Shown here in pieces: positions 3,191-58,505 of a stretch of DNA of 64,000 bases (its first letter is position 1; every line of letters begins with the position of its first letter). The notes under the pieces were generated by a model, which was not told where the DNA came from, searched no databases, and was given only the letters and a program-made list of their open reading frames with translations. The stretch is from positions 1,560 through 65,559 of the forward strand of contig JABISL010000034.1 of NCBI GenBank assembly GCA_018700055.1. The letters run 5' to 3'. This DNA is from a bacterium. GTDB taxonomy: Bacteria > Margulisbacteria > Marinamargulisbacteria > UBA817 > JABISL01. The position numbers and the translations under genes are program-made.

Positions 3191-4147
3191 ATGTCAGAAC
3201 AAGTCTATAATGATGTGCAGAACGTAGTCATAGTCGGATCAGGTCCAGCGGGTCATACTGCTGGGATTTATGCTGGTCGTGCATTATTGAGCCCCGTGAT
3301 GTTTGAAGGTGAGATGGCCGGTGGTGTTGCCGCAGGTGGTCAGCTGACCACAACTACTGATGTTGAAAACTATCCCGGATTTCCTGAAGGGGTTATGGGC
3401 CCGGATCTCATGTGGAAGATGCGTGAGCAGTCCATTAAATGTGGCACAACAATTATTACGAAGACCGTCGATTCAGTTGATTTTTCTAAGCAGCCATTTG
3501 AGTTAACGACACGTAAAGGTGTGGTAAAAGCCAAAACAGTTATTATTGCTACCGGAGCGACAGCAAAGAGATTAGGTATTCCAGGCGAAGACACTTATTG
3601 GCAGAAAGGCATGTCAGCTTGTGCTGTTTGTGATGGGGCGTTGCCTATTTTTCGTGAGAAACCATTGGTTGTTATTGGAGGAGGAGACTCTGCTGTAGAA
3701 GAGGCAGGGTACCTAACCAAATATGCAAGCAAAGTGTATCTCTTGGTTCGAAAAAATGAACTTAGAGCATCAAAGGTAATGCGTGAGAGAGCGATTGCCA
3801 ATGAGAAAATAGAGATCCTCTGGAATACAGAAGCTGTAGAAGCAACTGGTGGTAACTTGTTAGAGCAAGTGCGAGTGATAAACAATCAGACCAAAGAAGA
3901 GACTGTATTGGATGCGAGTGGATTATTCTATGCTATCGGACATGTTCCTAATACATCGTTCTTAGATGGCCAAATAACCCTAGATGCCGAAGGGTATATC
4001 GTGGTGTCAGAGCCAGGAACTACGAAAACCAATATCCCCGGTGTTTTTGCTTGTGGTGATGTCCAAGACAAAACCTACAGACAAGCAATAACCGCGGCGG
4101 GCTCAGGGTGTAAGGCTGCTTTAGAAGCAGAACGATACCTCGGGTAA
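3191..4147 (+). CDS. trxB: thioredoxin-disulfide reductase
   Basis: 318 aa. It has an N-terminal GSGPAGHTAG FAD-binding motif, the CAVCDGA redox-active disulfide motif and a GGGDSA NADPH motif. Confidence 0.9.
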   Translation: MSEQVYNDVQNVVIVGSGPAGHTAGIYAGRALLSPVMFEGEMAGGVAAGGQLTTTTDVENYPGFPEGVMGPDLMWKMREQSIKCGTTIITKTVDSVDFSKQPFELTTRKGVVKAKTVIIATGATAKRLGIPGEDTYWQKGMSACAVCDGALPIFREKPLVVIGGGDSAVEEAGYLTKYASKVYLLVRKNELRASKVMRERAIANEKIEILWNTEAVEATGGNLLEQVRVINNQTKEETVLDASGLFYAIGHVPNTSFLDGQITLDAEGYIVVSEPGTTKTNIPGVFACGDVQDKTYRQAITAAGSGCKAALEAERYLG

Positions 4148-4166
4148 ATTTGACGATCTGATTCAC

Positions 4167-4230
4167 TTTAGATTCGATTTTTGTCCTCGAGTTATTTGAA
4201 ACATCCCTCCGGGAAAACCGAATCTAGAAA
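4167..4230 (+). repeat. Structured intergenic repeat, copy A (TTTAGATTCGATTTTTGTCCTCG ... CCGGGAAAACCGAATCTAGAAA). It lies 20 nt after the trxB stop.
   Basis: It shares the cores TTTAGATTYGATTTTTGTYCTCG and GGRAAAMCCGAATCTA with copy B (34757-34820) and GTCCTCGA/CGGGAAAA with copy C (18305-18352). The outer arms TTTAGATTCG / CGAATCTAGA are inverted repeats. Confidence 0.5.
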
Positions 4231-4367
4231 TTTAAGCTGCGATGTTGAATAGAATGGGTCGAGGCTCGATTAACGCGTGGTTTTTTGTGAGGAGGTAGAT
4301 TCTCTTTGTCTTCGAAAGAAGAGTTAGCGTCTGGATTATTAGTTGAAGGGGGAAGTATGCCGTCATT

Positions 4368-4793
4368 TTATAGTAGCGCATCGATATCAAGAAGCTCAAC
4401 GGTAGAAATAGCTAAGCGACCTAAATCAGAATAGTTTGGTTCTGTTGCTCGATCAACAAGGCCTTGATAGGCTTCAATGGCTTTGTTTCGACTATTATTT
4501 AATCCCCAATCTGAGTTAAGCCGTAACCCAAGGTTCTTGGGGTCATTTAATATTATATCGGCGTCTTCAAAGAAGGTCAGAATGTCTTTTGAATAGTGAT
4601 CTGATCCATCGCTAAATACGGATAGATTAATGATTGTATCGTAAATATCAGTTAGTTCTTTGGTAGGGTTGAAGGTGTTGGGGTCCTTGGGTGGGCGTCC
4701 TGAAGCCGGCCGATTTGTGTTTTGGGTAGAAAATAAATTTCCCCAACTATTTGCTGTAACTACTGAAGATGTTGAACTTAATGTGGGTGCCAT
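4368..4793 (-). CDS. hypothetical protein (acidic, with a disordered N-terminus); third gene of a 3-gene operon
   Basis: 141-aa ORF lying 12 nt downstream of the previous gene on the same strand. I recognise no motifs. Confidence 0.4.
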   Translation of the reverse strand: MAPTLSSTSSVVTANSWGNLFSTQNTNRPASGRPPKDPNTFNPTKELTDIYDTIINLSVFSDGSDHYSKDILTFFEDADIILNDPKNLGLRLNSDWGLNNSRNKAIEAYQGLVDRATEPNYSDLGRLAISTVELLDIDALL

Positions 4794-4805
4794 GATTGTT
4801 CCTTT

Positions 4806-5723
4806 TTAGTTGGTTAAGAAATTAAGTTTGTGATGTAAATTTTCGATGAAAGTGGGTTTGCCACCTGCCATTGGAAAGTAGGGGGAAAAAACTTGGTCTC
4901 TAAGTGTATATTCGATAGTTGTAATATCGGCTTTTGATAACTTATCTTGGTTATAGGTTTCAATGCAACTTTGTAGAAGTAAGGCAACTTGTCCTTTGGC
5001 ATACCCTCGCTCCTGTTTTTTTGATTCTTTTTTTAATTCAGAAACAAAATTATTGAAACTATTTATATAAGGTTCTGTGCTGGGTTGTGATGGTTGTCTA
5101 TTTAATAGAGATTCACCCTCATTATGTAACTTAGTTAAGTTGGGGTTATTTCTGAGTAGGGGTTCTTTTTCACAGAGTTGTTTAAGTTCGGTGAGGGCTG
5201 TTTTGTGATCAACTGGCGCATCGTTATTTTTATAAAGGCTATTTAATTGAATTTCATTAATGACTTGTTCATATAAGGAAGCTGCTGTTTTGGGAGTAAG
5301 GGACTCGTAAATAGGAAGCAAATCAAATCGTCCATTATCACGATTATAGAACGCGGGGAGAGTTGGTAAGGGTAAAGGCGATATGTGGGGAGTTGGTGTT
5401 AGTGCTATTGCAACGGTGTTGGGGCTAAGACCGATTGCAGGTTTAACTTCAATTTTTTGTGCCTCTGCTTCCGCTAATGTTGGAACGTTGGCGGGGGTTT
5501 CGGATCGAACAGGATTGTTTTTTGGGGTTGTAGGCGGCAATTGACCTGCCAGAGGTTGAGGTATGGGCTCATTGTTTAGAAGTGCTCGAGATTGGCCCAT
5601 GATATTGAGTTGGTTTTGACTATGAGCTTTGGCGGTTTCGTTGCGTTTGGAAATCGCGAGCATAGTGTCTTTGTACTCATTCATGGCGTCTCTATTTATA
5701 GATGGTGTTGTGTTTAAGTTCAT
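4806..5723 (-). CDS. hypothetical Pro-rich disordered protein. The start is probably the ATG at 5721-5723 rather than the track's GTG at 5735.
   Basis: About 305 aa, with long P/T/L-rich low-complexity stretches (PIPQPLAGQLPPTTPKNNP..., TPTPHISPLPLPTLP). No signal peptide. The track start, a GTG, lies inside the upstream hairpin. Confidence 0.4.
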   Translation of the reverse strand: MNLNTTPSINRDAMNEYKDTMLAISKRNETAKAHSQNQLNIMGQSRALLNNEPIPQPLAGQLPPTTPKNNPVRSETPANVPTLAEAEAQKIEVKPAIGLSPNTVAIALTPTPHISPLPLPTLPAFYNRDNGRFDLLPIYESLTPKTAASLYEQVINEIQLNSLYKNNDAPVDHKTALTELKQLCEKEPLLRNNPNLTKLHNEGESLLNRQPSQPSTEPYINSFNNFVSELKKESKKQERGYAKGQVALLLQSCIETYNQDKLSKADITTIEYTLRDQVFSPYFPMAGGKPTFIENLHHKLNFLTN

Positions 5724-5727
5724 AATG

Positions 5728-5763
5728 GTCCTCACGGTAATTTTATATACTTATCGTGAGGAC
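5728..5763 (-). promoter_or_regulatory. Perfect 9-bp stem hairpin (GTCCTCACG-18 nt-CGTGAGGAC) ending 4 nt before the ATG. It sequesters the SD-like GAGGAC.
   Basis: Read directly: the inverted repeat gtcctcacg ... cgtgaggac. On the mRNA (minus) strand the 3-prime arm CGTGAGGAC is followed by CATT ATG. Confidence 0.5.
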
Positions 5764-5858
5764 GGAGGGTGGAATTTCAATTATTTAGTTTGAGCTTGAT
5801 AAGGGGATAGGGGTAGAGGTTATCTCACACACGAATAATGGTTTTGGGAAGATTGAGC

Positions 5859-6371
5859 CTATCGGATACTTAGTAGTTGAGCTAGTCGTTCAGGGGCGAC
5901 AGTGTGAATTGGTGGCATAGGTGGGTGGGCTATTTTTTTGTCGCTTTTTCTAGGAAATGAAGTAGCTGATGTAGGAAGGTTTTGGCTTGGAGGTGTGTTT
6001 TCTAATTGGTAGGGTCTTTCTGCACGAACGGCCTCACTTGTTTTTGCGGATAAGAGATCTTTTGCTTGGAGGGTTTGTTGTTCTATCTGCTGATCGGCAG
6101 AAGTAGGGATTAGGTCTTGCATTTCTTTTCTTTGAAACTCGAGTGCTCTTAAGATGTCTTTTTGTTCTAGAAGCTCTTTGCTTGGAATGGTTCGGCTATG
6201 GCCCAATATGTTAATTACGTTGGATAATTTCTGCTTAATAAACGAAACGGTTTCTTTTGAGTCTTGAGATAATGTTGAACGGGCTTCATTCGTCTCGCTA
6301 TTAGGCCCTTTTAAGGCAGACTTTTTGTCTGAATAAATTGAGAATGGAACAGTTAATGTTGGATTTAGCAT
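5859..6371 (-). CDS. hypothetical protein; first gene of the 3-gene operon
   Basis: 170-aa ORF with S/T/P/Q-rich composition. I recognise no motifs. Confidence 0.4.
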   Translation of the reverse strand: MLNPTLTVPFSIYSDKKSALKGPNSETNEARSTLSQDSKETVSFIKQKLSNVINILGHSRTIPSKELLEQKDILRALEFQRKEMQDLIPTSADQQIEQQTLQAKDLLSAKTSEAVRAERPYQLENTPPSQNLPTSATSFPRKSDKKIAHPPMPPIHTVAPERLAQLLSIR

Positions 6372-6375
6372 AAAG

Positions 6376-6412
6376 CACCTCGATAATTTAGTTATACTAA
6401 ATTATCGAGGTG
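6376..6412 (-). promoter_or_regulatory. Perfect 16-bp inverted repeat (CACCTCGATAATTTAG-TTATA-CTAAATTATCGAGGTG) ending 4 nt before the ATG of the 170-aa gene. It contains the SD GAGGTG in its 3-prime arm.
   Basis: Read directly at 6376-6412: cacctcgataatttag ttata ctaaattatcgaggtg. On the mRNA strand: CGAGGTG CTTT ATG. Confidence 0.55.
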
Positions 6413-6547
6413 GGACTGGCCTGAATTTCATTTATTTTATTAAAATTTTATTTTATTTTATTGGATGGGTAAAAAATGGGTTCAGAGTTAAGTTAAATAG
6501 GGTGGGTTTATGTTACAATTGGGTGACGTTTACAGGAGGAATATGAG

Positions 6548-7942
6548 ATGACTATAGACACTACAAAGATACGAATAGAGAAAGATACGATGGGTGAAAT
6601 GCAGGTTCCTTCGGACATGTATTATGGGGCACAGTCTGCCCGCTCATTAATGAATTTTCCAATTGGATGGGAAACGTTTCCTAGAGAATTTATCAAAGCC
6701 TTTGGCATCCTTAAGAAGGCTGCGGCATTAACAAACTTAGCATCTGGCGTATTGTCGCAAGAAAAAACGGACCTAATCGCGAAAGCGGCTGACGAAGTTA
6801 TTGAGGGCAAACTGGATGATCATTTTCCCTTAAGCGTATGGCAAACTGGGTCTGGAACGCAGACGAATATGAATGCGAATGAAGTTATCGCGAATCGTGC
6901 GATTGATATTGCAGGTGGTGTTGTAGGTTCAAAAGAGCCGATTCACCCTAATGATGATGTGAATAAATCACAATCTTCTAATGATACGTTTCCTACCGCA
7001 ATGCATATTGCCGCGGGGATGGAAATTCACGAGTCATTGATTCCGGCGATTAAGCAATTGAGAGATACATTTGCTCAAAAGGTAGAAGATTTTAAAGATG
7101 TCGTCAAAATTGGCCGAACGCATTTGATGGATGCGACGCCAGTAACTGTTGGGCAAGAGTTTTCAGGGTACGTACAGCAATTGAACAACGCACTTGAGCG
7201 TATTGAATCCGCTCAAAAACACATTTATGAGTTAGCTCTGGGTGGGACGGCAGTAGGGACAGGACTTAATACCCCGGAAGGCTATTCAGAAAACGTAGCC
7301 AAAACAATCGCAGATCTAACAGGGCTTCCTTTTGTAACAGCACCGAATAAGTTTGAAGCGTTGTCGGCACATGATGCCATTGTTCAAATGAGTGGTGCAT
7401 TCAAAACTTTGGCGGGGGGATTGTTCAAGATTGCCAATGATGTGCGTTGGTCTGCGTCTGGCCCGAGATGTGGCATTGGTGAGCTGCTGATTCCTGAAAA
7501 TGAACCTGGGTCATCAATTATGCCAGGGAAGGTAAACCCTACTCAGTGTGAAGCCCTTACAATGATTGCAGTTCAAGTTATGGGAAATGATGCCGCGATT
7601 GGGTTCGCAGGTGCATCAGGGAATTTTCAGTTGAACGTCTATAATCCAGTAATGATCTATAACTTGCTTCAGTCGATTAAACTTTTGGCTGATGGTTGCA
7701 ACGCATTTAATGATAAATGTGCAGTTGGCATTGAGCCGAATGCAGAGAATGTAGATAAGAACCTCTTTGGGTCCTTAATGTTGGTTACTGCGCTTAATAC
7801 TCACATTGGGTATGATAACGCAGCTGCGATCGCTAAGAAGGCTCATAAAGATGGATCTACGTTGAAAGAAGCGGCGGTTGGACTAGGTCATCTGACGGCG
7901 GAGCAGTTTGACGAATGGGTCAAACCAAAAACAATGGTCTAA
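6548..7942 (+). CDS. fumC: class II fumarate hydratase
   Basis: 464 aa. It has the [16 protein letters not shown] fumarate lyase signature and a typical FumC N-terminus ([17 protein letters not shown]). Confidence 0.92.
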
Positions 7943-7959
7943 TCTTGTCATCTAATTTT

Positions 7960-7996
7960 CCGCAGAGCTATCTGAAATGGCCCTGCGGAAAAAAAG
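7960..7996. terminator. Candidate bidirectional intrinsic terminator between the convergent fumC and the 8057-9373 gene
   Basis: ttttCCGCAGagctatctgaaatggccCTGCGGaaaaaaag. It has a 6-bp GC stem flanked by a T-run on one side and an A-run on the other. Confidence 0.4.
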
Positions 7997-8056
7997 AGTA
8001 AGATGCCTCGGCCTTCGAAGAATTAGAAGACAGTTAGAATTAAGAAGATTAAATTT

Positions 8057-9373
8057 CTATTTTGCTAACTTTTCAAGCATTTTAGCGACCTTGGAATCGC
8101 CATTCTTTTCATAGAGTGCTTCGAGGACTAAGGCGCCCATCTCGGTATCCCCAATTTTGAGGTAGTTGTGAGCGAGTAGATAGTAGGCTTCAAGTCGTTC
8201 TTCGTCTAATAACATGCTGGTTTCTAGGTAGTTAATAGCGGCATGGTGATATCCCATCTTGGTATAAACATATCCCAATTCGAAGTGAGCATCGTCCATA
8301 TCTTGTTCGTAGAAAACAATCTTGAGGAGTTGTTTTTCAGCATCAAGATAGTGCCCTCTTTCGATTGCGCGTTCGGCATGACTGAATAGATAACTTAGGA
8401 AGTTTTTGGCGCCATAGTCATAAGGTGTGCCTAGTTGTGGCGTCCATCGTAACCCTGCAAACGCAATATTATTAGTAAACGACTCATCTGTGTCAGTAGA
8501 TATACGAACCGTGTTACTGTAACCGCCGTTCAGCTGTAATGAGTCAGTTAGAAACTGTAAATATTGTACGCCAATTGTAGTGTCTTCATCTGTTCTTTCA
8601 GTGTCCCAATTGGGGTATTCTGAGTTTCCTTTTGAATAAATAAGAGTTAAGAGTTGATTGGCTGAAAGTTGTGCATAAGCCTCTCCTTTCATTGTGGTTC
8701 CTGAAAAATTATATGTCGTTTCTAAAGAAGAACTGTCCGCTACTTCATATCCCGCACCCAGACTTATCCAATGGTTAAGTGGCAGGTAAAGTGTTCCTCC
8801 GTAATTGTTCTCAGCGGTATCTATATCAACATCATTATATTGAAGGCCACTGTTTTCATAATATACATCGAGTCCTAAATTGGGATTAAAGTAATAAGAT
8901 AAGCGAGGTTTGAAAATGAGTTTTGAATATTGGTTTCCACTAGACTCAACCTCTTTAAACGTGTCATAAAACACGCTTCCGTTAAGTGTTAGTTGAGGGC
9001 CAAAGCTGTATTGTAACGTAGCGTAGGCTTGGTTTTTGACATATTGGTCAAAGTTTGAATTCATGTATTTATCGATGTTGCTCTGGAAGCCTGCATTCAG
9101 TGAAAGATCAGGGCTAAGGTAGCTGGAAATTCCGATGCCTATTCCAGCTTTGCTCGCAGTGACGTTTTCAGTTGTTGTGGAACTTAGGCTGAGATTATCA
9201 TTGGATTCTACCCCAAAGTCTAGTATTGGTGTGATTGAAATTCCGGCCCATAGGCTTTGGTAGGTGATTGCAAGTATGGCTATACATATTAGTGTTGTTT
9301 TTTTCATAAGGGTCCCCATAGAAAGGCCCTCCAGGCTCTGTCTGGAGGGTGCATTGTGTAGCAGATTAGTCAT
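8057..9373 (-). CDS. secreted / outer-membrane-associated protein with a C-terminal TPR-like domain
   Basis: 438 aa. It has a signal peptide (LICIAILAITYQSLWA) and a long beta-rich, S/T/N/G-rich region. The C-terminal roughly 100 aa carries TPR-like helical repeats (YYLLAHNYLKIGDTEMGALVLEALYEKNG). Confidence 0.35.
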   Translation of the reverse strand: MTNLLHNAPSRQSLEGLSMGTLMKKTTLICIAILAITYQSLWAGISITPILDFGVESNDNLSLSSTTTENVTASKAGIGIGISSYLSPDLSLNAGFQSNIDKYMNSNFDQYVKNQAYATLQYSFGPQLTLNGSVFYDTFKEVESSGNQYSKLIFKPRLSYYFNPNLGLDVYYENSGLQYNDVDIDTAENNYGGTLYLPLNHWISLGAGYEVADSSSLETTYNFSGTTMKGEAYAQLSANQLLTLIYSKGNSEYPNWDTERTDEDTTIGVQYLQFLTDSLQLNGGYSNTVRISTDTDESFTNNIAFAGLRWTPQLGTPYDYGAKNFLSYLFSHAERAIERGHYLDAEKQLLKIVFYEQDMDDAHFELGYVYTKMGYHHAAINYLETSMLLDEERLEAYYLLAHNYLKIGDTEMGALVLEALYEKNGDSKVAKMLEKLAK

Positions 9374-13671: not shown

Positions 13672-14853
13672 TTAGGATTCTTCTAAATGAACTCTTTTGA
13701 CTTCTTCAGCTACTAGGTAAGGGACCTTTTTGTCCAATACAGCGGGTAGAATGTGGTCAACCGTAGGGTTTTCTACAGCGGTAGCCAATGCTCTTGCTGC
13801 TGCAATTTTCATTTTTTTTGTAATACGAGGTGCACGTGCATCGATTGCCCCACGGAAAATTCCAGGGAATGCCAATACGTTATTTACTTGGTTAGCGAAA
13901 TCGCTTCGTCCAGTGCCTACAATAAATGCCCCGGCTTCTTTTGCGTCTTCAGGCATTATTTCTGGGATTGGGTTAGACATAGCCAAGATAATGGCTTTGT
14001 CTGCCATAGATCGGACCATGTCCTTAGTGACACAGTTGGCGACACTAACACCAACAAATACGTCGGCATCAACAATGGCGTCTGCGAGAGATCCATTTTG
14101 ATTGTTCCGATTGGTTCGTTTGGCGATACGTAGCTTGGATGCGTTTTCAACAACATCAGGACGTGTTTCAGAAACGATTCCTTTGGAATCACAAAGTATG
14201 ATTTCTCGAACAGATTCTGGCTTGGCATCATCGTAGCTCATGCTTAGTAAAAGCTCTGCAATTGCAATTCCAGCAGCACCAGCACCATTGATAACAACTT
14301 TGAGTGTAGTTGGGTTTTTTCCGGCGAGCTTTGCAGCATTGAGGATGGCGGCCAACGTTACAATAGCTGTGCCATGTTGATCATCATGAAATACTGGAAT
14401 CCCAATATCTAATAAAGCTTCTTCGATTTCGAAGCAGCGAGGTGCAGCGATATCTTCAAGGTTAATTCCGCCAAATACAGGAGCAAGATTTTTCACGATG
14501 TTGATGATTTCGATTGTGTTTTGAGTTGTGAGACAGATTGGAAATGCGTCTACATTCGCATATTCTTTAAATAAAATGGCTTTGCCTTCCATTACAGGGA
14601 TTGCGGCTTCGGCACCAATGTTTCCAAGTCCTAGTACAGCAGAGCCGTCAGAAACGATGGCGACAGTGTTTTTCTTAAGAGTGAGGTCATGGACTCTCTC
14701 AGGGTTTTTGTGAATTTCTTCGCAAACGCCAGCTACTCCTGGGGTATAAGCTAAAGATAAATCGTGAGTGGTTTTGAGGGGGGCTTTTAAAGCGATTTCA
14801 AGTTTTCCGCCTAGTTCTTCGTGGTATTCAATGGATTCTTCATAAATCGTCAT
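13672..14853 (-). CDS. maeB: NAD(P)-dependent malic enzyme (short form)
   Basis: 393 aa. It has the LSLAYTPGVAGVC motif, a GAGAAGIAIAELL Rossmann motif and malic-enzyme family architecture. Confidence 0.85.
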   Translation of the reverse strand: MTIYEESIEYHEELGGKLEIALKAPLKTTHDLSLAYTPGVAGVCEEIHKNPERVHDLTLKKNTVAIVSDGSAVLGLGNIGAEAAIPVMEGKAILFKEYANVDAFPICLTTQNTIEIINIVKNLAPVFGGINLEDIAAPRCFEIEEALLDIGIPVFHDDQHGTAIVTLAAILNAAKLAGKNPTTLKVVINGAGAAGIAIAELLLSMSYDDAKPESVREIILCDSKGIVSETRPDVVENASKLRIAKRTNRNNQNGSLADAIVDADVFVGVSVANCVTKDMVRSMADKAIILAMSNPIPEIMPEDAKEAGAFIVGTGRSDFANQVNNVLAFPGIFRGAIDARAPRITKKMKIAAARALATAVENPTVDHILPAVLDKKVPYLVAEEVKRVHLEES

Positions 14854-14921
14854 GGGTTATTCTCCTTACTTTAAAGCTCAAGTATAACGGAGAATTACGC
14901 TAGGCACAAATTTAGCAGGGG

Positions 14922-22681: not shown

Positions 22682-23131
22682 TTATATTACAAAGGAAGTA
22701 TTGGGTGGCTGTGTGGGTGGAGGCCGCTTAATGGAGCGGGAATTCTCATTTAAATAGGCGAGTTGGGTGGTTGTTATTTTTGGGATAGTTATTGCGAGTA
22801 GTGATGGATTAGCGGCTATTTTCGGGAAGACGGTTTGGTCCAAGTCTTGTGTTTTGGGTTCAGAGGTTGGATTGGGTGATGGTGTTATGGATTTTATTGG
22901 ACTACTAGGGTTACAGACGATGAAGTTGTCGTGTGTGGTTTGACCTTGAGTGGGCAGCAAGGGAATGCTGATACTCATAATCAAGACATAAGTTAGTAGT
23001 GTGAGTGCAGAAATATAGGGTTGGAGTCTACGGAGCATTTGCATAACCTTATTACTATAGTAGCGATATATTACCGTAAGAATTAAGATGTTTACAAGGT
23101 GGGGATGATCACTTATGATACTAAGTCTCAA
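22682..23131 (-). CDS. hypothetical membrane-anchored Pro-rich protein (the start is probably internal)
   Basis: 149-aa ORF with one TM (ISALTLLTYVLIMSISIPLL) followed by a P/S/T-rich low-complexity tail. The track start overlaps the repeat region at 23116-23148. Confidence 0.25.
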   Translation of the reverse strand: MRLSIISDHPHLVNILILTVIYRYYSNKVMQMLRRLQPYISALTLLTYVLIMSISIPLLPTQGQTTHDNFIVCNPSSPIKSITPSPNPTSEPKTQDLDQTVFPKIAANPSLLAITIPKITTTQLAYLNENSRSIKRPPPTQPPNTSFVI

Positions 23132-23148
23132 TTGATACTAAGTCTCAA
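23116..23148 (+). promoter_or_regulatory. Two perfect 16-bp direct repeats (TGATACTAAGTCTCAA) with 17-bp periodicity. They lie 50 nt upstream of the porin-like OMP gene in a divergent intergenic region.
   Basis: Read directly: tgatactaagtctcaa t tgatactaagtctcaa at 23116-23131 and 23133-23148. Confidence 0.5.
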
Positions 23149-23198
23149 AATGTAATATTGACGAGTACAAAATATATAGAAAATACAGGAGATTTATA

Positions 23199-27602: not shown

Positions 27603-27640
27603 CGTTATTTACTCTTTTTCTGTCCTCGACCTTCGATAAA
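27603..27640 (+). repeat. Partial member (copy D) of the GTCCTCGA / CCTTCGATAA intergenic motif family
   Basis: ttctGTCCTCGACCTTCGATAAatgaaagggcagg. It shares GTCCTCGA with copies A and C, and CCT(C)CGATAA with the two SD-hairpins at 5728 and 6376. Confidence 0.3.
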
Positions 27641-30028: not shown

Positions 30029-30466
30029 TTATGATTTAGCGGCTGCCGGTGCTTTTTTAGCGGCTGCTTTTTTTGGAGCTGCTTTTTTAGCCGTTGTAGC
30101 TGCTGGCTTTTTTGGAGCTGCTTTTTTAGTTGTTGTAGCCGGTGCTTTTTTAGCGGCTGCTTTTTTCGGAGCTGCTTTTTTAGTCGCTGTAACTGGCGCT
30201 GGTGTAGTAGCTCCTTTGTTATTTGCAAGAGCAAGCTTAGATTTGGTTCTAGCTGCAGTATTTTTGTTCAAAATTCCTTTGCTAACACTTTTATCAATAA
30301 TGCTAAGCGTGTTTCTCACGATAGTTAGTTGATTGGCGTCTTTTGATTCAATCGCTGCGTATGCTGCCTTGATTGCAGATTTCATTTGAGTTTTGTTTGA
30401 AAGGTTGCGTGATCTGTTTCGCGCGTTCCGTTTAATGTCTTTTTTTGCTGCTTTAATATTTGCCAT
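30029..30466 (-). CDS. rpsT: 30S ribosomal protein S20 with a C-terminal histone-H1-like KAAP-repeat extension
   Basis: The N-terminal roughly 85 aa read MANIKAAKKDIKRNARNRSRNLSNKTQMKSAIKAA.. (S20). The C-terminal roughly 60 aa read TTPAPVTATKKAAPKKAAAKKAPATTTKKAAPKKPAATTAKKAAPKKAAAKKAPAAAKS, encoded by tandem DNA repeats at 30040-30200. Confidence 0.8.
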   Translation of the reverse strand: MANIKAAKKDIKRNARNRSRNLSNKTQMKSAIKAAYAAIESKDANQLTIVRNTLSIIDKSVSKGILNKNTAARTKSKLALANNKGATTPAPVTATKKAAPKKAAAKKAPATTTKKAAPKKPAATTAKKAAPKKAAAKKAPAAAKS

Positions 30467-40395: not shown

Positions 40396-43300
40396 ATGAA
40401 CATGTTTAATAAAGTGTTATTTAAAGTTTTGGCGGTTGTTTCTCGGGATGTTCATCAAACCAGCGCGGTTTTTGGGACGCTAACCGTTACAGAAAGAATG
40501 GAAACGGTTTTTTCTGATATGTTGAAGGTGATAGATGAGCAGTTTCCTGCGGATCTAACATTAGTACATACTGATGGTCCGGCTAGAGAGTCTCTTTCGG
40601 TCTCACCACCTTTGCCAAGGGCAGGGTCCCAGGATGGCCGTGAGTCTAAGATGTCGTCTCCTCTTCGAGCATATACTCGGACAATGACCCCGACAGATAT
40701 TCCTGATCGAAACGATGAGGTAAGTGAACCCTTTTCAGTTTTGAGTAATGTTCTTGATGAAATGAGCCAAAGCAACCTTCAAGTTGGCGATGAAATTGTT
40801 CCTCTGTCAGTGTTTTATATGTATTTGAGGATACTAGAAAGGGAGTTTGAGACAGCGGTTGTTTCTTATACTTCTGGAATTGGAGATTTCATTCAAGCAC
40901 TTCAGGATTATATGAGAGAGCATAATGCTAACCCGATAGGTGCGATTCACAACTTCCATCAGCATCTTTTGGGGGAAAGAACATTAGCGTCAGAATGGAT
41001 TGAGAAACACCAAATAGCAGGAGATGACAATGAAGGTGGGTGGGAATCTGAGCTAAAAAAAATATTTAAGCAAGCCAACAGTAGTATGGTTTCCGTTGGG
41101 GTTTCTTTCCAGAAAGATGCCAACTATTTTGATCGGAATTATACGGCTTTTCGTAAATATTGGGATTTAATGGAGCCAACTTATTCGATGGGCATGGGGA
41201 TGTCTCGGAACAATAAAAGACAGTACTTTTTGATGGCGGCTACATTTTCTCGTGTTTTAGCTCAAAGATTAGGGGATTTGTATTCAGATAGCCCCCTGCC
41301 AGAATTTAATTGGCGGAATGTTTTGTACGATAGTTTTATGAGTACCTTACCCGTATCCAAACCCGCGATTGGGCTAGATACGTTTATGAATGAGCTAATG
41401 AAGAAGCCAGAGTTGATAAAAAAAGAATCGTTTTTTGTTAATGGTGATCATTGCGATCTTTTAATTTTTGATAACCGAAAGAAAGGGTTGTTTAATGGGT
41501 TTGAGTCAGAAGCCTATGGGATGCTATGTTCGCAGTTTCATGAAGCATGGGCGCTGGCGCTTACTGAGCTAGGGATGGATCGTGTACGCCAAGTAACCAC
41601 CCCTTTTGGTGGTGGTTATATGGAGGCTGATTTTATCACTCTAGTTGCATGTAAACCGGGTGATAAATTCGATAGCCTGAAAGCATTTTTTACTAGTAAA
41701 TATTCAATTTCAGAGATTGTGTCGAGCGGGGATTTCGAAAAGAAATATCAAGGCGATATATTTATGGGAGGGTGTTATGTGCCGCCCAAAGATCAGGGGC
41801 TTCAAGTAGGAGAAATTGCGGCGTTCTTTACGTTAAAAGAAGGGTTGAACTGTGTAGCAAAGGATATCGTCATCACTCGGGACGGTAATACAGTTCCTTT
41901 GAAATATGATGATCTTGTCAGGGTTACTAATAGTACTAGAACCAATTCTTCAAAGGCGATAGGTGCACTAGAAAAGGTGGGGTTCGGATTAATGGGGCGT
42001 TTTCAAGAGTATGAGAAAAGGGCTGACGTTTTGATTGATGCGTTATCTAAAACAGATAAGGCGCTTGTGACAGAAATGTGTAATGCACATTTTTTACTGA
42101 ATAGAGAGGGTATGACAAACGATTATGGTCAGCCAGATTTACCAATGTACAACGAATATGATCACCCTGTGGTCAACACGAGAGACTTTTTTTGGGTCCC
42201 AGAAGTGTATCAGGAAAGTCAGCCTGTTATGGAAAAAATGGACGATTTGGACCGGTTGGTCTTGGCGATTCAAGCGGATTTTGATTCTCGAGCAGGGTCT
42301 ACAGAAGCGATTCAAATGGTGAGAAAAGAGATGTTGTCTCGAATAGATAGGTTAGGAGTATTTAAACAATATTTGATAGATAATGTTGAGAAACAAGACC
42401 GATTTTTTGAGTTTATGGCTAGGCAATGGGAAGTGTTTCAGGAAGAAGTTCCTGATGACTTTTCGACAGTTAGGAGACAATACTTTGATCATTGTCACCC
42501 GGCTAGATCAGATGAATATCGCCCGCCTAAGCAACTTGCTTGTTTTAATACGGGATTGGTTCGAGAGGCGTTGCCTCCGACATGGGATGTGGAGCAGTTT
42601 CGTCCGGATCTGTTAAAAAAGAATCGAACATTGGTGGCTTTTTTTATGTGCCTACGTCACCTAGGCGATTCTTTATATGTATCACATGACTTGGATCAGT
42701 CAAGACTGGGCAAGGCGATTAAAATGATTCGTGGGTTTCAAAAAATGGAGACAAATCTTGAAACCAAGCTTCAAGCAACGATTTACCCGAAAGTTACGCG
42801 GATATTTGGTAGTCAAGAAGAGGTGTCTGGCGGAGAGTTATTTGATGCTGAAGGCCGAGGAATTACCAAAGAAAAAATTAATGAAATGTTTTTAGAAATG
42901 AAAGGACTATTGGCCTTTGTTCCGAAAGCTCAATGGCGACTACTTCAGAAAAATCAAATTGTAGTGGATTTTTATGGGACAATGAATATAATGCAAAGTC
43001 TTGTAGCGTGTTTGGACTGTTTGGAGCAAGTTCAGAATGAGGGTGTGAGCCCTTCCTTTTTTGATTCTTTGAAAAGTTTGATAAAGCTTGTTTCTGACTT
43101 AGAAAAAATGCTTTCTAGGGCTCAATCTGGGGATGTGTTATTTGATGGAGAAGAGAAACCTCTTCAATGGATGGGTGTTTTGTCCTTGTCTAAGCAAATG
43201 TATTTGCAAACAGCTATTGGCGATACGTTATCACCGCTGTATGGGGTATTGACGAGCCAAATTCGTCAGTCGCTATTGGCGCATCCAGAGTCTTTTTTGG

Positions 43301-43749
43301 ACAACTATAAAAAAATGGCTGAAGTTAGTATTGCTGCGTCACTGTTGTTAGGCGATTTTAGTATTTCAGAAGGATTTGAGAAGCATTTTTCAGCGGTATT
43401 GCTTAAAATGAACATGATGTTGATTCAGACTCCGATAGATGGAAAGGGTTTAAAGCATCTAACGCGTGATATTCAGTTTGCGCAGAAACGAAATACTTAT
43501 TCTGAAGTGGAGAAGGAGTGCTGGCGTGATTTGGAACGATATATTAGTTTAACTGTTTCAGATGCGAGGTCTATTGATAGAGTCTCCGAAGAAAAGGTTT
43601 CAGTTGCTAGGCAAGAAGCCCTCAATGATATCTGGCAGAGCCTACAAGGCAGTGTGTTAGGAGCGGAAGATAGACCCCCGCTGCCGCCTGAAAAAAAAAT
43701 GTCACGGCGAGGGACAAAGAGCTTGTTTAAAGTGGCTTCGAACTCTTAA
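40396..43749 (+). CDS. large (1117 aa) hypothetical protein with no recognisable domains; candidate orphan / effector-like protein
   Basis: Long uninterrupted ORF. It has an S/P-rich N-terminus with SP/TP motifs and a Pro-rich C-terminus (RPPLPPEKK). It has no signal peptide and no TM. Confidence 0.5.
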   Translation: MNMFNKVLFKVLAVVSRDVHQTSAVFGTLTVTERMETVFSDMLKVIDEQFPADLTLVHTDGPARESLSVSPPLPRAGSQDGRESKMSSPLRAYTRTMTPTDIPDRNDEVSEPFSVLSNVLDEMSQSNLQVGDEIVPLSVFYMYLRILEREFETAVVSYTSGIGDFIQALQDYMREHNANPIGAIHNFHQHLLGERTLASEWIEKHQIAGDDNEGGWESELKKIFKQANSSMVSVGVSFQKDANYFDRNYTAFRKYWDLMEPTYSMGMGMSRNNKRQYFLMAATFSRVLAQRLGDLYSDSPLPEFNWRNVLYDSFMSTLPVSKPAIGLDTFMNELMKKPELIKKESFFVNGDHCDLLIFDNRKKGLFNGFESEAYGMLCSQFHEAWALALTELGMDRVRQVTTPFGGGYMEADFITLVACKPGDKFDSLKAFFTSKYSISEIVSSGDFEKKYQGDIFMGGCYVPPKDQGLQVGEIAAFFTLKEGLNCVAKDIVITRDGNTVPLKYDDLVRVTNSTRTNSSKAIGALEKVGFGLMGRFQEYEKRADVLIDALSKTDKALVTEMCNAHFLLNREGMTNDYGQPDLPMYNEYDHPVVNTRDFFWVPEVYQESQPVMEKMDDLDRLVLAIQADFDSRAGSTEAIQMVRKEMLSRIDRLGVFKQYLIDNVEKQDRFFEFMARQWEVFQEEVPDDFSTVRRQYFDHCHPARSDEYRPPKQLACFNTGLVREALPPTWDVEQFRPDLLKKNRTLVAFFMCLRHLGDSLYVSHDLDQSRLGKAIKMIRGFQKMETNLETKLQATIYPKVTRIFGSQEEVSGGELFDAEGRGITKEKINEMFLEMKGLLAFVPKAQWRLLQKNQIVVDFYGTMNIMQSLVACLDCLEQVQNEGVSPSFFDSLKSLIKLVSDLEKMLSRAQSGDVLFDGEEKPLQWMGVLSLSKQMYLQTAIGDTLSPLYGVLTSQIRQSLLAHPESFLDNYKKMAEVSIAASLLLGDFSISEGFEKHFSAVLLKMNMMLIQTPIDGKGLKHLTRDIQFAQKRNTYSEVEKECWRDLERYISLTVSDARSIDRVSEEKVSVARQEALNDIWQSLQGSVLGAEDRPPLPPEKKMSRRGTKSLFKVASNS

Positions 43750-43758
43750 TTCATCACA

Positions 43759-46719
43759 ATGATTATTCTTTATTCTATTATTATTTGTCTAAATGTAGGG
43801 TTGGGGTTTTTAGCGTTATTTAAAAATAATAATCAAAAAGGACTCGTTCAAACGAGAGCGGCTTTTTTTAATCTTTCTTGTTTTTGTGCGCTTTGGGTTC
43901 TGTCAGTCTGTATGGTGAAATATGGGGCTAGTCCAATTTTTTGGATCAAAATGGCCTTTTTTTCGGGGATAGGGTTTGTCTTTAGTTTTTTGTTGATGAT
44001 ACTCAGATACCCTACTCATATAAACCTTCCTAAATGGGTTTGGGGGTTAGTGATTGGGGGGGCAGTCTTGTTATGCGGGCTGAGTTTTACGCCTCTAATT
44101 GTTCAAGGGTTTGATGCAAGTGCACACCAGGTAAACTATGGCCCTTTATATAGGGTGGTGGTCTATTATATTTCGGCGTTAATTTTGACTTCTGGATTTC
44201 TGGCTATTCATCAGTATAGAAAAGGAAGTGGTTTGGATCGATTGCGTGTCTTTTATTTGATATCAGGGATGTTGTTTTCTTTTGTTGGTATCTATATTAC
44301 CAATATTCTTCTTCCAAATTTGTTGCATACAAACAAAAGTAGTGCCTATGGACCTTTGTTTTTGACTGTATTTTTGGCGACGACAGTTTACTCTATTCTG
44401 AAGCATCGTCTTATGGAAATTGATCTTGTGATCAAAAAAGGCGTGTTTTATTTTCTGCTTACTACATGTTTGTCCCTCCCGGTTTTATTTTTGTTTATGG
44501 TAACAAGTATTCTTACAGCAGATGAATCTGGACTCACGCTCTTTTTTTGTTTTGGGTTTGTAGCCATAAGTATTGTTCTTTTGTATCCCCATCTTATTGA
44601 AATTATTGACCATATTACAGAACGGTTGTTTTTTCGGAAGCCAACGGATTACCAAGCATTAACGACGGATATTAGTGGTCGTCTTTCTAGAGTTATCACC
44701 GAGACGCAATTGGCAGATGTTCTGGTTCGAGTAATGACGGATCGATTAAAATTGTATGGTGCAAGTTTATATGTTTTAAGGGGAACGGGAGCGTTTTCTC
44801 GGGTGGAAGGGGTAGGGTCTATGAAAAATATTCCTGAGGTATTACCTGAGGACCATCCCGTGATTCAATGGTTTAAATATCGCCCTTGTAGTGTTTACCC
44901 TAATGAACCTGTTTTTGATGTTAGTGATATTCCACAAAAAGAGTTGTTTACACAAGAAATGTCTTTTTTTATGGTAAACGGTGTTGGTGTAGGGATTCCT
45001 TTTATGTATGAGGGCCGTTTGATGGGGTTTTTGTTATTAACTGAAAAATTGTCTCAGAAAGCGTTTACTCAGAACGATACATTGTTTTTTGAGATGGTTT
45101 CGAATCAAGCTGTTACTGTGCTACAAAATATGGTGAGTATCGCTGAAGTAAAGCAACAAATATCGACATTAAATGACTTGAATGCGTTTGCGGTAAGGGT
45201 TTCTGAAACGTTGGAGTCGGATGCTATTTTTGAGGTTTTTTCTACGGATGCTAAAAAGTTTTTGGGATTTGATTGGGTGATATGTAGTGACTCAACCAAG
45301 CTTTTAGGCGATGAAAGTGGCGCGTCTTGGTTTGATAGGGACAGTGATTCAAAAAAAATAAAGCCTTTTCCATGTAGTGCCTATAAAGAGTATGTTCTTC
45401 AGTTAGATTCCGAGTATGGTCCGTTTGTACTGTCTTCGGATATGCATCCTGAGCTGACAAAATATAAGGACTATTTGACGGAGCAATTGGGGAACCATAG
45501 AGTGATCGGGATTCCTTTTTTACATAGTGGAAAGCTGATGGGGATAGCATTGGGAGGATTATCCAATGTTCGATCAGAATTGTCTCCTCGTAAGATGATG
45601 ATGTTGGGGACCTTGGCTCAACAAACGGCTGTGGCATTATATAACGCCCATCTCTATGAAGAAATGCGTCAAATGCAGTCTTATCATGAGGCTATACTAG
45701 GTAACATGACGAGTGGTGTGGTGGTTTTAGATGACCAGAACTGTGTGGCTTTGGTAAATCAAGCGTTTGCGACAAGTATTTCAATGCAGAGAGAGGCGAT
45801 GGTACATGTTTCGATTGATGATCTTATTAAAAAGAACAGAGCTTTGATAGCGTTGACGGAGAACCGAGGGCCTCGGCAGCCGGTAGAAATTATCTTGAAA
45901 AATGAAACAGGGATGCATGACTACTCCCTAAGTGTGGAAGAAATCCCGTTTGGGGAGGTTGTATATCGAGTAGGTGTTCTTAGTGATTTGACGTCGATTA
46001 AAAAGCTTCAGAAACAAATGATTCATGCTGATCGATTGTCATCGTTAGGGACCATGGCTGCGGGGATTGCCCATGAAATTCGAAATCCGCTTTCAGCTGT
46101 TTTGTTATGTACTGAAATGCTTCAAACCAAATGGGAGGATAACGGGTTTACGAAGACGTATGTGGATACAGTGGATACACAAGTCACTCGTATTAATACG
46201 CTCTGTCAGTCACTGCTACGCTTGGGAAAACCTCAAAAGCCGAGGTTGGACGAAGTATCACTTCGCCAAGTGTTTCAAGAAATGGAGGATTTGTTAGGGG
46301 TTAAGTTTCGGGAGAAAAGTGTCTCTTTTGAGAGTCGTGTAACGCAAGAGTGTTCAGTATATGCAGACCGAAATCAATTGGTTCAAGTATTAATAAATAT
46401 TATTTTGAATGCATTGGATGCAGTTCCTGATACGGGTGGCGTTATTTGGTTTTCTTATGAGTCGAGTGGGGAGATTGCAGTTATCAGGATTCATGATAAT
46501 GGAAAAGGGATTCCTTCTGATGATATTTCTAAGGTATTTGATCCGTTCTTTACTAACAAAGAGCAAGGGACGGGGCTTGGATTGTCGATTGTTCATCAAA
46601 TTATTCAAGATCATAGAGGTACAATATCGGTTCAATCTAGTCCTGATCAGGGGACAGAGTTTGTTATATCGATTCCCTTATTTGCCATTAGACGAGTGCC
46701 TAAGGAATTAATGGTATGA
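43759..46719 (+). CDS. sensor histidine kinase with an N-terminal multi-TM (HK 7TM-like) domain plus GAF, PAS, HisKA and HATPase_c domains; paralog 1
   Basis: 986 aa with about 8-9 N-terminal TM segments. It has the H-box SLGTMAAGIAHEIRNPL and ATP-lid motifs DNGKGIP and GTGLGLSIVHQII. Confidence 0.8.
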   Translation: MIILYSIIICLNVGLGFLALFKNNNQKGLVQTRAAFFNLSCFCALWVLSVCMVKYGASPIFWIKMAFFSGIGFVFSFLLMILRYPTHINLPKWVWGLVIGGAVLLCGLSFTPLIVQGFDASAHQVNYGPLYRVVVYYISALILTSGFLAIHQYRKGSGLDRLRVFYLISGMLFSFVGIYITNILLPNLLHTNKSSAYGPLFLTVFLATTVYSILKHRLMEIDLVIKKGVFYFLLTTCLSLPVLFLFMVTSILTADESGLTLFFCFGFVAISIVLLYPHLIEIIDHITERLFFRKPTDYQALTTDISGRLSRVITETQLADVLVRVMTDRLKLYGASLYVLRGTGAFSRVEGVGSMKNIPEVLPEDHPVIQWFKYRPCSVYPNEPVFDVSDIPQKELFTQEMSFFMVNGVGVGIPFMYEGRLMGFLLLTEKLSQKAFTQNDTLFFEMVSNQAVTVLQNMVSIAEVKQQISTLNDLNAFAVRVSETLESDAIFEVFSTDAKKFLGFDWVICSDSTKLLGDESGASWFDRDSDSKKIKPFPCSAYKEYVLQLDSEYGPFVLSSDMHPELTKYKDYLTEQLGNHRVIGIPFLHSGKLMGIALGGLSNVRSELSPRKMMMLGTLAQQTAVALYNAHLYEEMRQMQSYHEAILGNMTSGVVVLDDQNCVALVNQAFATSISMQREAMVHVSIDDLIKKNRALIALTENRGPRQPVEIILKNETGMHDYSLSVEEIPFGEVVYRVGVLSDLTSIKKLQKQMIHADRLSSLGTMAAGIAHEIRNPLSAVLLCTEMLQTKWEDNGFTKTYVDTVDTQVTRINTLCQSLLRLGKPQKPRLDEVSLRQVFQEMEDLLGVKFREKSVSFESRVTQECSVYADRNQLVQVLINIILNALDAVPDTGGVIWFSYESSGEIAVIRIHDNGKGIPSDDISKVFDPFFTNKEQGTGLGLSIVHQIIQDHRGTISVQSSPDQGTEFVISIPLFAIRRVPKELMV

Positions 46720-54855: not shown

Positions 54856-54878
54856 TAAATTCCAGTAAATGGAATTTA
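54856..54878 (-). terminator. hairpin terminator overlapping the msrA stop (TAAATTCCA-gtaaa-TGGAATTTA followed by TTTATATT on the mRNA strand)
   Basis: A 9-bp perfect inverted repeat, read directly. Confidence 0.45.
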
Positions 54879-55463
54879 TTTGGGCCAGTGCTGTTTAAGA
54901 AAAGAGTCTCTACCGGATCCTTTTTTGTAACGGTTGTACTGGAGGGTGCTTTTTTTGTAATAATCCTGATGGTAGTCTTCGGCTAGGTGAAATGTAGTGT
55001 ATGGGCGGAGTTGAGTAACTATTGGGAGATCAAATTTTCTGGAGCCAGACAGCGCTTGTTTTGCAGCGATAGCCAGTTGGTGTTGATCGTCGTCATGGTA
55101 GAAAATAATGGTTCGGTAGTGTTTGCCGATGTCAGCAAACTGTCCATCATCTTGGGTGGGGTCGATGCTTCTCCAATAGGTAATTAATAGTTGGTCGTAG
55201 CTCACGACCTTGGGGTTATACGTGACTTGAACGGCTTCGGCATAGTCTGTTTGGCCATGCGCTACTTCATGATAGGTCGGATTGGGTGTCGTTCCACCAG
55301 CATAACCAGCGACAACTTCAGTGACGCCTTCTAAGGATTCAAATGGGGGCTCCATGCACCAAAAGCAACCGCCCGCGAACGTAGCTGTTTGAGTAGATGC
55401 GCAGCTTGGTGTTGTCATGAGTAGACCTCCGAGGAGTATTAATGTGAGTAGTTGTTTGAGCAT
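54876..55463 (-). CDS. msrA: peptide methionine-S-sulfoxide reductase MsrA
   Basis: 195 aa with a signal-like N-terminus. It has the GGCFWCME active-site motif. Confidence 0.85.
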   Translation of the reverse strand: MLKQLLTLILLGGLLMTTPSCASTQTATFAGGCFWCMEPPFESLEGVTEVVAGYAGGTTPNPTYHEVAHGQTDYAEAVQVTYNPKVVSYDQLLITYWRSIDPTQDDGQFADIGKHYRTIIFYHDDDQHQLAIAAKQALSGSRKFDLPIVTQLRPYTTFHLAEDYHQDYYKKSTLQYNRYKKGSGRDSFLKQHWPK

Positions 55464-55478
55464 TGATCAATTGAACAT

Positions 55479-55508
55479 GGGACACATCATCCTAAGGCAA
55501 TGTGTCCC
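55479..55508 (-). promoter_or_regulatory. perfect 9-bp stem hairpin (GGGACACAT-12 nt-ATGTGTCCC) ending 15 nt upstream of the msrA ATG and after the stop of the Cys/His-rich small gene
   Basis: Read directly at 55479-55508. Confidence 0.45.
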
Positions 55509-55522
55509 AGTTAATTATTTAT

Positions 55523-55768: not shown

Positions 55769-55848
55769 AAATAATCCTCCTAGTATTGGTCCAGTAATAA
55801 GAAATTGGACTGTATTAATTATACACTAGGCGAAAGTTGAAAAGGGAT

Positions 55849-56213: not shown

Positions 56214-58505
<2,292 letters not shown>

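Follow-up and report, generated by a model that had tools for sequence, protein, structure and literature searches.

In a 64,000-nucleotide (nt) stretch of contig JABISL010000034.1 (hereafter the window), two short leader open reading frames (ORFs) precede the first two genes of a minus-strand operon of three orphan genes. Each leader ends within the 5′ arm of a stable hairpin, and the 3′ arm of the same hairpin contains the Shine-Dalgarno (SD) sequence of the downstream gene. We tentatively propose, at somewhat less than an even chance, that this duplicated leader-ORF/hairpin module gates translation: a ribosome on the leader would melt the stem and expose the SD. The locus consists of three minus-strand ORFs between trxB (3191-4147, plus strand) and fumC (6548-7942, plus strand). 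Its genes, hairpins (H1 and H2), and upstream ORFs (uORF1 and uORF2) are as follows.

Gene 1: 5859..6371, minus strand, 170-aa orphan protein (HOH87_03750)
Gene 2: 4806..5723, minus strand, 305-aa orphan protein from the ATG, or 309 aa from an upstream GTG (HOH87_03745)
Gene 3: 4368..4793, minus strand, 141-aa orphan protein (HOH87_03740)
H1: 6376..6412, minus strand, perfect inverted repeat with 17-bp arms and a 3-nt loop (ATA)
H2: 5728..5763, minus strand, GTCCTCACG(A)TAA paired with TTA(C)CGTGAGGAC
uORF1: 6402..6431, minus strand, ATG AAA TTC AGG CCA GTC CCA CCT CGA TAA, encoding MKFRPVPPR and stop
uORF2: 5751..5780, minus strand, TTG AAA TTC CAC CCT CCG TCC TCA CGA TAA, encoding (M)KFHPPSSR and stop

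The 5′ arm of H1 (6412-6396, CACCTCGATAATTTAGT) opens with a copy of the 16S-type anti-SD, CACCTC, and its 3′ arm (6392-6376) terminates in the SD GAGGTG (6381-6376), followed by CTTT and the ATG of gene 1. H2 comprises nine perfect base pairs (bp), an A/C mismatch, and a further 3 bp, and its 3′ arm terminates in the SD GAGGAC (5733-5728), followed by CATT and the ATG of gene 2. Both SDs thus form the last six bases of the 3′ arm, 4 nt 5′ of the ATG, and the AUG lies outside the stem. An initial annotation of this DNA had already reported the two SDs in the 3′ arms at this distance from the ATG, together with a perfect inverted repeat at 6376-6412 and a perfect 9-bp hairpin at 5728-5763. We confirmed these features, except that the H1 arms, given there as 16 bp, are 17 bp long, and that H2 continues through the mismatch.

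Folded as RNA at 37 °C, H1 and H2 gave -26.1 kcal/mol (z = -7.65) and -15.9 kcal/mol (z = -4.2), respectively, and for neither hairpin did any shuffled sequence fold as well (0/200 each). Both (I3 and I6) are among the six longest inverted repeats of the window. The control set consisted of SD-led ATG starts of ORFs of at least 100 codons from unrelated bacteria and metagenomes (1.72 Mb of DNA). A perfect stem of at least 9 bp over the SD core was found at 0 of 893 control starts, versus 2 of 40 in the window, both at this operon. H2 is less exceptional when judged on folding energy alone: a folding energy of -15.9 kcal/mol or lower, together with full pairing of the SD core, occurred at 24 of 908 control starts (2.6%), and one of -20 kcal/mol or lower at nine (1%). 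The foot of the stem differs between the two copies yet stays paired (CA..UG in H1, GU..AC in H2), a pattern that would be expected of an RNA structure and not of a shared protein-binding site. The SD-occluding stems are real and non-random. The Rfam covariance models gave no match in 4100-6700, even at E values up to 5.

H1 was flagged in a scan for intrinsic terminators, and we rejected this assignment: only 6 of its 17 pairs are G-C, its tail is CUUUAUGCU, and it lies between divergent genes. H2 was not flagged, and the scan found no terminator between genes 1 and 2. The stem at 7951-7997, after fumC, differs from H1 in being G+C-rich with A/T runs on both sides, and looks like a genuine bidirectional intrinsic terminator.

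Across in silico folding from 4 to 80 °C, the GAGG of both SDs had an unpaired probability of less than 0.01, i.e., was more than 99% paired. This result bears on the RNA thermometer suggested by the initial annotation, in which temperature would melt the stems and free the SD. In general layout, an SD paired within a hairpin of the 5′ untranslated region, the locus resembles ROSE and fourU elements. However, those thermometers are weak, imperfect structures that melt at 30-42 °C, whereas the stems here stay intact below 80 °C in silico and are perfect, without the mismatches and G-U pairs of ROSE and fourU. A large temperature up-shift also looks unlikely for an organism from marine metagenomes. 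We therefore consider a thermometer practically out of the question. Since the SD stays paired at all of the temperatures tested, the stems, if transcribed, would need an active opener, and the obvious candidate is the ribosome translating the leader.

Both leaders are exactly nine codons long, start with xTG-AAA-TTC, and finish with CGA-TAA in the 5′ arm. The stop codon of uORF1 (6404-6402) falls within the 5′ arm of H1, and that of uORF2 (5753-5751) within the extended 5′ arm of H2. The first conserved block is located as follows.

Conserved block 1, leader 1: 6423..6437, minus strand, AAATAAATGAAATTC, the uORF1 start context and first three codons
Conserved block 1, leader 2: 5772..5786, minus strand, AAATAATTGAAATTC

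The two blocks are identical at 14 of 15 nt (shared sequence AAATAAnTGAAATTC, 6423-6437 vs. 5772-5786), the best 15-nt match when the upstream regions of the window are compared pairwise (1326 pairs). When anchored on CGATAA, 15 nt after block 1, the leaders are in exact register (P ~1.5e-5 for the 15-nt block), and their total identity is 25 of 45 nt (P ~1e-4). Both leaders can be written as the pattern [A/T]TGAAATTC-N15-CGATAA. In comparison, the proteins encoded by genes 1 and 2 were barely alignable (BLASTP E = 0.31, with a common NI[L/M]G[H/Q]SR stretch). Because the leaders match and the downstream proteins hardly do, the leader blocks look constrained. An old duplication near the N-termini, which would make genes 1 and 2 paralogous, is only hinted at by this alignment; if one duplication founded both modules, the leader blocks would have been retained and the remainder would have diverged.

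The first five leader residues are common to both copies (MKF[R/H]P), and Pro-Pro occurs at codons 7-8 of leader 1 and codons 5-6 of leader 2. CGA is the commonest Arg codon here, so a rare-codon pause is not expected. Each leader is in frame with its main ORF, and the TAA is the sole intervening stop. Recoding of this TAA, which we considered and rejected, has no support, TAA being the commonest ordinary stop (32 of 52).

These leaders also account for the CCTC(A)CGATAA core that the initial annotation described as shared between the hairpins. The sequence is present at both sites, but not as a free-standing motif: it consists of the anti-SD CCTC, the Arg codon CGA, and the leader stop TAA. 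Within the window, CCTCNCGATAA had 6 matches against 3.35 expected and CCTCGATAA had 12 against 14.3 expected, so that no enrichment as a wider motif was evident. The third occurrence, placed by the initial annotation at 27610-27625, is located at ~27630-27639 and is a chance match with no adjoining hairpin or start codon. For annotation, the lesson is that a "shared motif" beside two hairpins was the 3′ end of a mini-ORF. A scan of metagenomes with the pattern AATAANTGAAATTCN{12,18}CGATAA gave at least 120 matches; those listed all look like chance, with flat spacing (N = 15 in 20 of these 120), and do not include the source locus. The looser pattern scan of viral sequences returned six matches, all attributable to chance.

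In the proposed switch, a module of ~75 nt would tie the translation of each of the first two cistrons to a ribosome on the short leader. The module would be arranged as an A/U-rich, SD-less start region, the 9-codon leader, and the stable hairpin, the 3′ arm of which would provide the SD of the main gene. The 5′ arm would be formed by the last part of the leader ORF, with the anti-SD CCUC, the Arg codon CGA, and the stop UAA. In the naked mRNA, the SD would be locked. A ribosome reaching, and especially dwelling on, the last leader codons would unwind the 5′ arm, with its leading edge then 8-17 nt 5′ of the freed SD. Initiation at the main AUG, 27-30 nt downstream of the leader stop, could then be by a second 30S subunit or by the terminating ribosome itself. 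Gene 3 would be translated through ordinary coupling, 12 nt past the gene 2 stop.

Ribosome occupancy was simulated in silico with a 27-nt footprint that was kept unpaired. Under this constraint, the main stem was lost from P-site codon 4-5 (H1) or codon 3 (H2). The gap between the ribosome front and the SD was 8-17 nt at codons 7-9, and 8-11 nt with the stop codon in the A site; in this model, a further 30S subunit could fit into the gap. The A/U-rich regions in which the leaders start were predicted to be accessible, with mean unpaired values of 0.27-0.75, as compared with 0.000-0.005 for the main SDs. What the sequence and the in silico folds show is the stems, the placement of the SDs within them, the leader ORFs with their similarity in register, and the geometry of the footprint; transcription of the hairpins and leaders and translation of the leaders are inferred. 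Translational gating by two SD-occluding stems, as raised in the initial annotation, is consistent with all of our computations and is strengthened by the leader ORFs that stop in the 5′ arms, while staying a tentative proposal.

Candidate modulators of the dwell time are pausing at Pro-Pro or other Pro codons, and the nascent MKF[R/H]P peptide itself. The presence of Pro-Pro in both leaders is only suggestive of a programmed stall signal. In a bolder version, which we consider rather improbable, MKF[R/H]P...R-stop would represent an undescribed family of arrest or pause peptides that senses Pro-codon pausing and gates lineage-specific Pro-rich orphans cistron by cistron, with two autonomous copies in the one operon. 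The signal would then be Pro-tRNA, EF-P status, or a small molecule, and with the leader stop embedded in the anti-SD/SD stem, the terminating ribosome itself would be the switch.

Several points weigh against a leader-operated switch. Neither leader is preceded by an SD, merely by an A-rich AAATAA, and uORF2 starts with TTG; translation of the leaders without an SD is possible, as SD-less starts are common in this genome. When a ribosome occupies codons 4-5 of leader 2 in the simulation, the SD is predicted to remain partly paired in an alternative fold. The minus-strand transcripts are C-rich, which raises the chance of anti-SD pairing generally, and a third, weaker SD-occluding stem occurs at 9327-9349 (minus strand; CCCTCCAG-ACAGAGC-CTGGAGGG), before an ATG at 9319. 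This third stem folds at -17.5 to -19.9 kcal/mol with a z score of only -1.46. The ATG at 9319 is probably the true start of a TPR/beta-barrel protein (called as 420 aa by JGI), and translation from an in-frame ATG at 9373 would read through the stem. Furthermore, the module is present in two copies only, both in one operon, which may merely share ancestry, and no relative turned up in the databases searched. The transcription start could also lie inside the palindromes. Finally, the conserved blocks can be read as promoter elements, either TTGAAA/ATGAAA-19 nt-GATAAG/GATAAT or TGAAAT-17 nt-CGATAA, the latter only vaguely ECF-like. That such promoter-like blocks would mimic an in-frame 9-codon ORF by chance has, in our estimate, a low probability.

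Among bacterial regulatory layouts, the commonest is a promoter overlapped by a palindromic operator, and the two blocks can be fitted to it. They would then be -35/-10-like elements, transcription would start within or close to the loop, the palindromes would be operators for one or more repressors centered on +1, and the hairpins would never be present in RNA. Two blocks conserved on either side of a spacer that varies in sequence but not in length are a classic promoter signature. With the ATG 29 or 26 nt from GATAAT or GATAAG, respectively, the leader would be ~20 nt long, typical of the SD-led genes of the window, and H1 sits in the divergent intergenic region beside fumC. However, the spacer measures 19 nt, GATAAG lacks the near-invariant -7 T, every recognizable -10 element in the window is TAnnnT, and the promoter scan does not call these sites. 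The palindromes (36-37 bp, one of them perfect) exceed the typical operator length, and in both the end coincides with the SD, 4 nt from the ATG, a position that an operator does not need. Additionally, no regulator gene lies near the operon.

The half-sites provide a further argument against this reading. The spacing of GATAA...TTAyC is 15 nt in H1 and 10 nt in H2, corresponding to a shift of 2.5 bp per half-site, and with registers that differ in this way, one rigid dimer cannot bind both H1 and H2. Measured from the dyad, GATAA lies at 8-12 nt in H1 and at 5.5-9.5 nt in H2; only CCTC/GAGG, i.e., the SD itself, keeps its register. A Fur-family operator was considered on account of GATAAT...ATTATC near fumC, and was rejected: H1 and H2 are not among the window sites with at least 12/19 matches to the 19-bp Fur box GATAATGATAATCATTATC or at least 11/14 matches to the 7-1-7 motif, and the hexamers are 13 nt apart, rather than 1 or 7. 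The shared dimeric DNA operator of the initial annotation is thus disfavored, and the promoter/operator explanation as a whole appears unlikely.

Several other features were noted around these blocks. The spacer between gene 1 and uORF2 contains GATAA-N17-TTATC with a C-rich center (5798-5824), and GATAA-N(6-20)-TTATC occurs 6 times in the window, as compared with 1.7 expected. Upstream of uORF1, one promoter candidate was found.

Candidate sigma70-like promoter: 6445..6473, minus strand, TTTACC-17-TAAAAT within an A/T-rich (ATAAA)n tract

This candidate is weak, with 9 of 12 consensus matches, a score not above shuffle expectation. If it were used, the transcript would hold uORF1 and H1. An (ATAAA)n/21-nt repeat tract (6424-6462) lies directly 5′ of uORF1, and on the fumC side of the divergent intergenic region, a 21-nt direct repeat (TTAAGTTAAATAGGGTGCGT, x2.2) occupies 6488-6532. 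Both repeats may be promoter or regulator sites for fumC.

In the phage T4 late genes e, soc, and I-TevI, the ribosome-binding site is in a hairpin containing the late promoter. A similar arrangement at this locus would place a promoter in each hairpin, so that transcripts starting there would be translatable, read-through transcripts would be silent, and the cistrons would be insulated. As in T4, the hairpin occludes the SD and a TATA-like sequence is at the palindrome center; these loop centers (TAGTATAAC and GTATATAAAAT) are 18-19 nt 5′ of the ATG, and the promoter-like blocks point in the same direction. Promoters near start codons occur genome-wide, leaderless genes are common, and read-through from gene 1 into gene 2 is expected, as no terminator separates them. 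Nevertheless, TATAAC, TATATA, and TATAAA lack the -7 T, and TAAAAT in H2 has neither a -35 element nor a TG extension. Gene 1 has no co-directional upstream gene to silence, fumC being divergent, and unlike the T4 genes has no upstream read-through from which to be insulated. Also unlike T4, we found no T4-type late promoter (TATAAATA), phage context, or viral relatives. The conserved 9-codon ORF ending in each 5′ arm would be left unexplained, and we regard this arrangement as improbable.

A recognizable SD was present by eye in only ~40% of the window genes, and SD-less starts are common. Many genes carry a TATAAT-like hexamer 6-8 nt 5′ of the start codon and no SD; examples are the starts at 15828, 21187(-), 51873(-), 58863, 3191, 24924, 52718(-), and 37360(-). 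This arrangement suggests leaderless mRNAs.

The hairpins could also be present in the mRNA and act independently of the leaders. They would be opened or cut by an RNA helicase, RNase III, an RNA-binding protein, or a small RNA, or they would serve as 5′ stabilizers. RNase III-activated translation has precedents in lambda N and Escherichia coli adhE. The stable stems do cover the SD, and H1, at 17 bp, approaches the length of an RNase III substrate, so that RNase III processing, another suggestion of the initial annotation, could fit H1. It does not fit H2, for which 9+3 bp with a mismatch make a poor substrate. No loop sequence is common to H1 and H2 for a shared binding protein, no Rfam family matched, and the equal length of the conserved leaders and the position of their stops would be unexplained. 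We judge an opener acting in trans to be unlikely, if slightly less so than the promoter-based explanations.

Alternatively, the palindromes and the leader similarity might have no function and be by-products of a local duplication, in orphan DNA that evolves fast and lies on a C-rich strand. The genes are orphans, the weak N-terminal similarity between genes 1 and 2 suggests an old duplication, C-rich transcripts favor anti-SD pairing, and short two-copy repeats are frequent in the region. Against this, the genes look maintained (long ORFs, native codon usage, and good SDs), yet stems of -26 and -16 kcal/mol would silence them if left unopened. Conservation is far higher in the leader blocks than in the adjoining coding sequence, and, as noted above, such a stem was absent from all 893 control starts. 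The absence of function therefore seems quite improbable.

On sequence evidence, the three genes appear to be real coding sequences. A codon-usage model, for which the remaining minus-strand genes of the window served as the training set, was scored frame by frame and gave +0.10 to +0.19 bits/codon in frame versus -0.5 to -0.9 out of frame for all three (for gene 1, +0.10 versus -0.65 and -0.54 in the other frames), within the range of known window genes. This frame-specific usage ruled out non-coding ORFs and confirmed the gene calls of 170, ~305, and 141 aa in the initial annotation. Its description of these proteins as homology-poor, with no recognizable domains or signal peptides, also held. 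Pfam, PHROGs, and PDB sequences yielded nothing meaningful for genes 1-3, and neither transmembrane segments nor signal peptides were predicted. Searches of 5.8 billion protein clusters and IMG/VR recovered no homologues of any of the three beyond themselves, and for the 305-aa gene 2 protein, a full phmmer search against 1.84 billion representatives returned only itself. With no homologues found, H1 versus H2 is the sole comparison.

Pro contents of 8.8% (gene 1), 9.5% (gene 2), and 5.7% (gene 3), against roughly 4% in typical window genes, agreed with the Pro-rich composition reported initially. The GC skew of the plus strand is +0.09 to +0.29 across the window (1-64000), independent of gene orientation, and the minus-strand genes are accordingly C-rich (skew -0.05 to -0.48), which inflates their Pro/Ser/Thr content. 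The Pro/Ser/Thr richness of genes 1-3 is thus in part due to the C-rich coding strand common to minus-strand genes. With the composition partly explained by strand bias, all three proteins orphans, and no secretion system nearby, the "effector-like" label given to these proteins is unsupported. Another minus-strand ORF, at 22682-23131, encodes a protein with 12% Pro and no Pfam match. A perfect 17-nt tandem duplication (TGATACTAAGTCTCAAT x1.9) is found at its 5′ end, in a divergent promoter region (23116-23148); an apparent long palindrome at 23113-23150 is really this tandem direct repeat.

The AlphaFold2 single-sequence models were too poor for fold searches, with pLDDT values of 46.6 for gene 2 and 37.4 for gene 3. 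Both low-confidence models contain helices. That of gene 2 shows an N-terminal helix, a Pro-rich segment or linker of ~75 aa, which is probably disordered, and a helical C-terminal part. Gene 3 has its own SD, AAGGAA (4804-4799), which is unstructured and has no hairpin. Its start region folds at only -4.6 kcal/mol (z = -0.64), and its ATG lies 12 nt past the gene 2 stop. Gene 3 is probably translationally coupled to gene 2.

The source, an uncultured marine bacterium, is also represented in the JGI sample 3300072015 and the ENA "HAWL17" marine metagenomes, and two short contigs match the window at 100% identity. The window neighbors are housekeeping genes typical of a Gram-negative cell. They encode thioredoxin reductase, a DsbD-like protein, class II fumarase, a tail-specific protease, malic enzyme, isocitrate dehydrogenases, RelA/SpoT, acetyl-CoA carboxylase subunits, RecJ, ribosomal protein S20, porins, histidine kinases, and lipopolysaccharide (LPS) genes. 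No secretion system or regulator gene is among the annotated neighbors of the operon. With the neighboring fumarase as the query against genome contigs, the closest relative showed 71% identity, and this search provided no close genome and no usable synteny.

Elsewhere in the window, the leader of the malic-enzyme gene (13672-14920, minus strand) contains a 7-bp anti-SD/SD helix (AATTCTCC...GGAGAAT) with TATACT in the loop, and a 9-codon in-frame uORF starting with GTG crosses its 5′ arm. Upstream of an msrA-like gene (54876-55463), at ~55470-55510 (minus strand), the sequence GGGACACAT...ATGTGTCCC forms a strong hairpin of about -20 kcal/mol; the "intergenic" stretch 55464-56258 contains two small called genes (81 and 65 aa). 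The S20-like protein has 145 aa, as compared with ~85 aa in a typical S20, and a 39-nt x2.8 (15-nt x9.7) repeat at 30050-30183 encodes its Ala/Lys-rich C-terminal extension. The 1117-aa ORF at 40396-43749 has no Pfam match. A perfect 13+13 palindrome, AAATGGATCAAAT followed directly by ATTTGATCCATTT, is located at 49465-49490, near the 3′ end of the ORF 46716-49655.

If the leader-operated switch is true, ribosome-operated switches would reach beyond resistance, Mg2+, or amino-acid operons to orphan genes of an uncultured marine lineage. The design would be compact, at ~75 nt, with an SD-less leader whose stop is embedded in a perfect anti-SD stem, and its two copies would gate the two cistrons independently. 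Its practical weight is limited, in that the three proteins have no relatives. The leader ORFs are the element that is new relative to the initial annotation; the logic itself, that of translation attenuation or uORF-mediated unmasking, is known from cat, cmlA, and ermC, and from mgtQ-mgtB.

The module resembles those of the chloramphenicol-inducible genes cat-86/cat(pC194) and cmlA, which have 9-codon leaders, in that a short leader lies directly upstream on the same strand, and a stem-loop sequesters the downstream SD, with the leader overlapping its 5′ side so that a paused ribosome would open the stem. The leader pentapeptides of cat and cmlA play a role analogous to that of the conserved first five residues here. 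The cmlA leader also has nine codons, encoding a 9-aa peptide ahead of SD-sequestering stem-loops (PMC8876359). Unlike cmlA, which has a strong SD, the leaders here are without an SD of their own. Their peptides are unrelated to the MVKTD or MSTSK of cat and cmlA, and a single perfect stem takes the place of alternative stem-loops. The regulated genes encode orphan Pro-rich proteins, with no resistance-gene match in the Pfam, PHROG, PDB, and homologue searches.

In ermC, a ribosome stalled in the leader frees the sequestered ribosome-binding site (PMC5418344), and a ribosome in the leaders described here would have the same effect. The erm leaders are longer and undergo a four-segment rearrangement (1:2/3:4 to 2:3), whereas no alternative partner was evident in our folds. 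The closest analogue of uORF2/H2 is mgtQ, an 8-aa intergenic uORF of the Salmonella mgtCBRU operon: when it is translated, the ribosome-binding site of mgtB is freed from an inhibitory stem-loop (PMC8092293). Both are short ORFs between two operon cistrons. The mgtQ system uses ribosome-destabilizing Asp/Glu codons and alternative stem-loops and has no sequence similarity to uORF2, and in our module the leader stop lies within the stem itself. The Pro-codon leaders mgtP and mgtL, from the same operons, sense Pro-tRNA or EF-P (PMC3641672, PMC5299641). Finally, in contrast to cat and cmlA, the module described here occurs twice in one operon.

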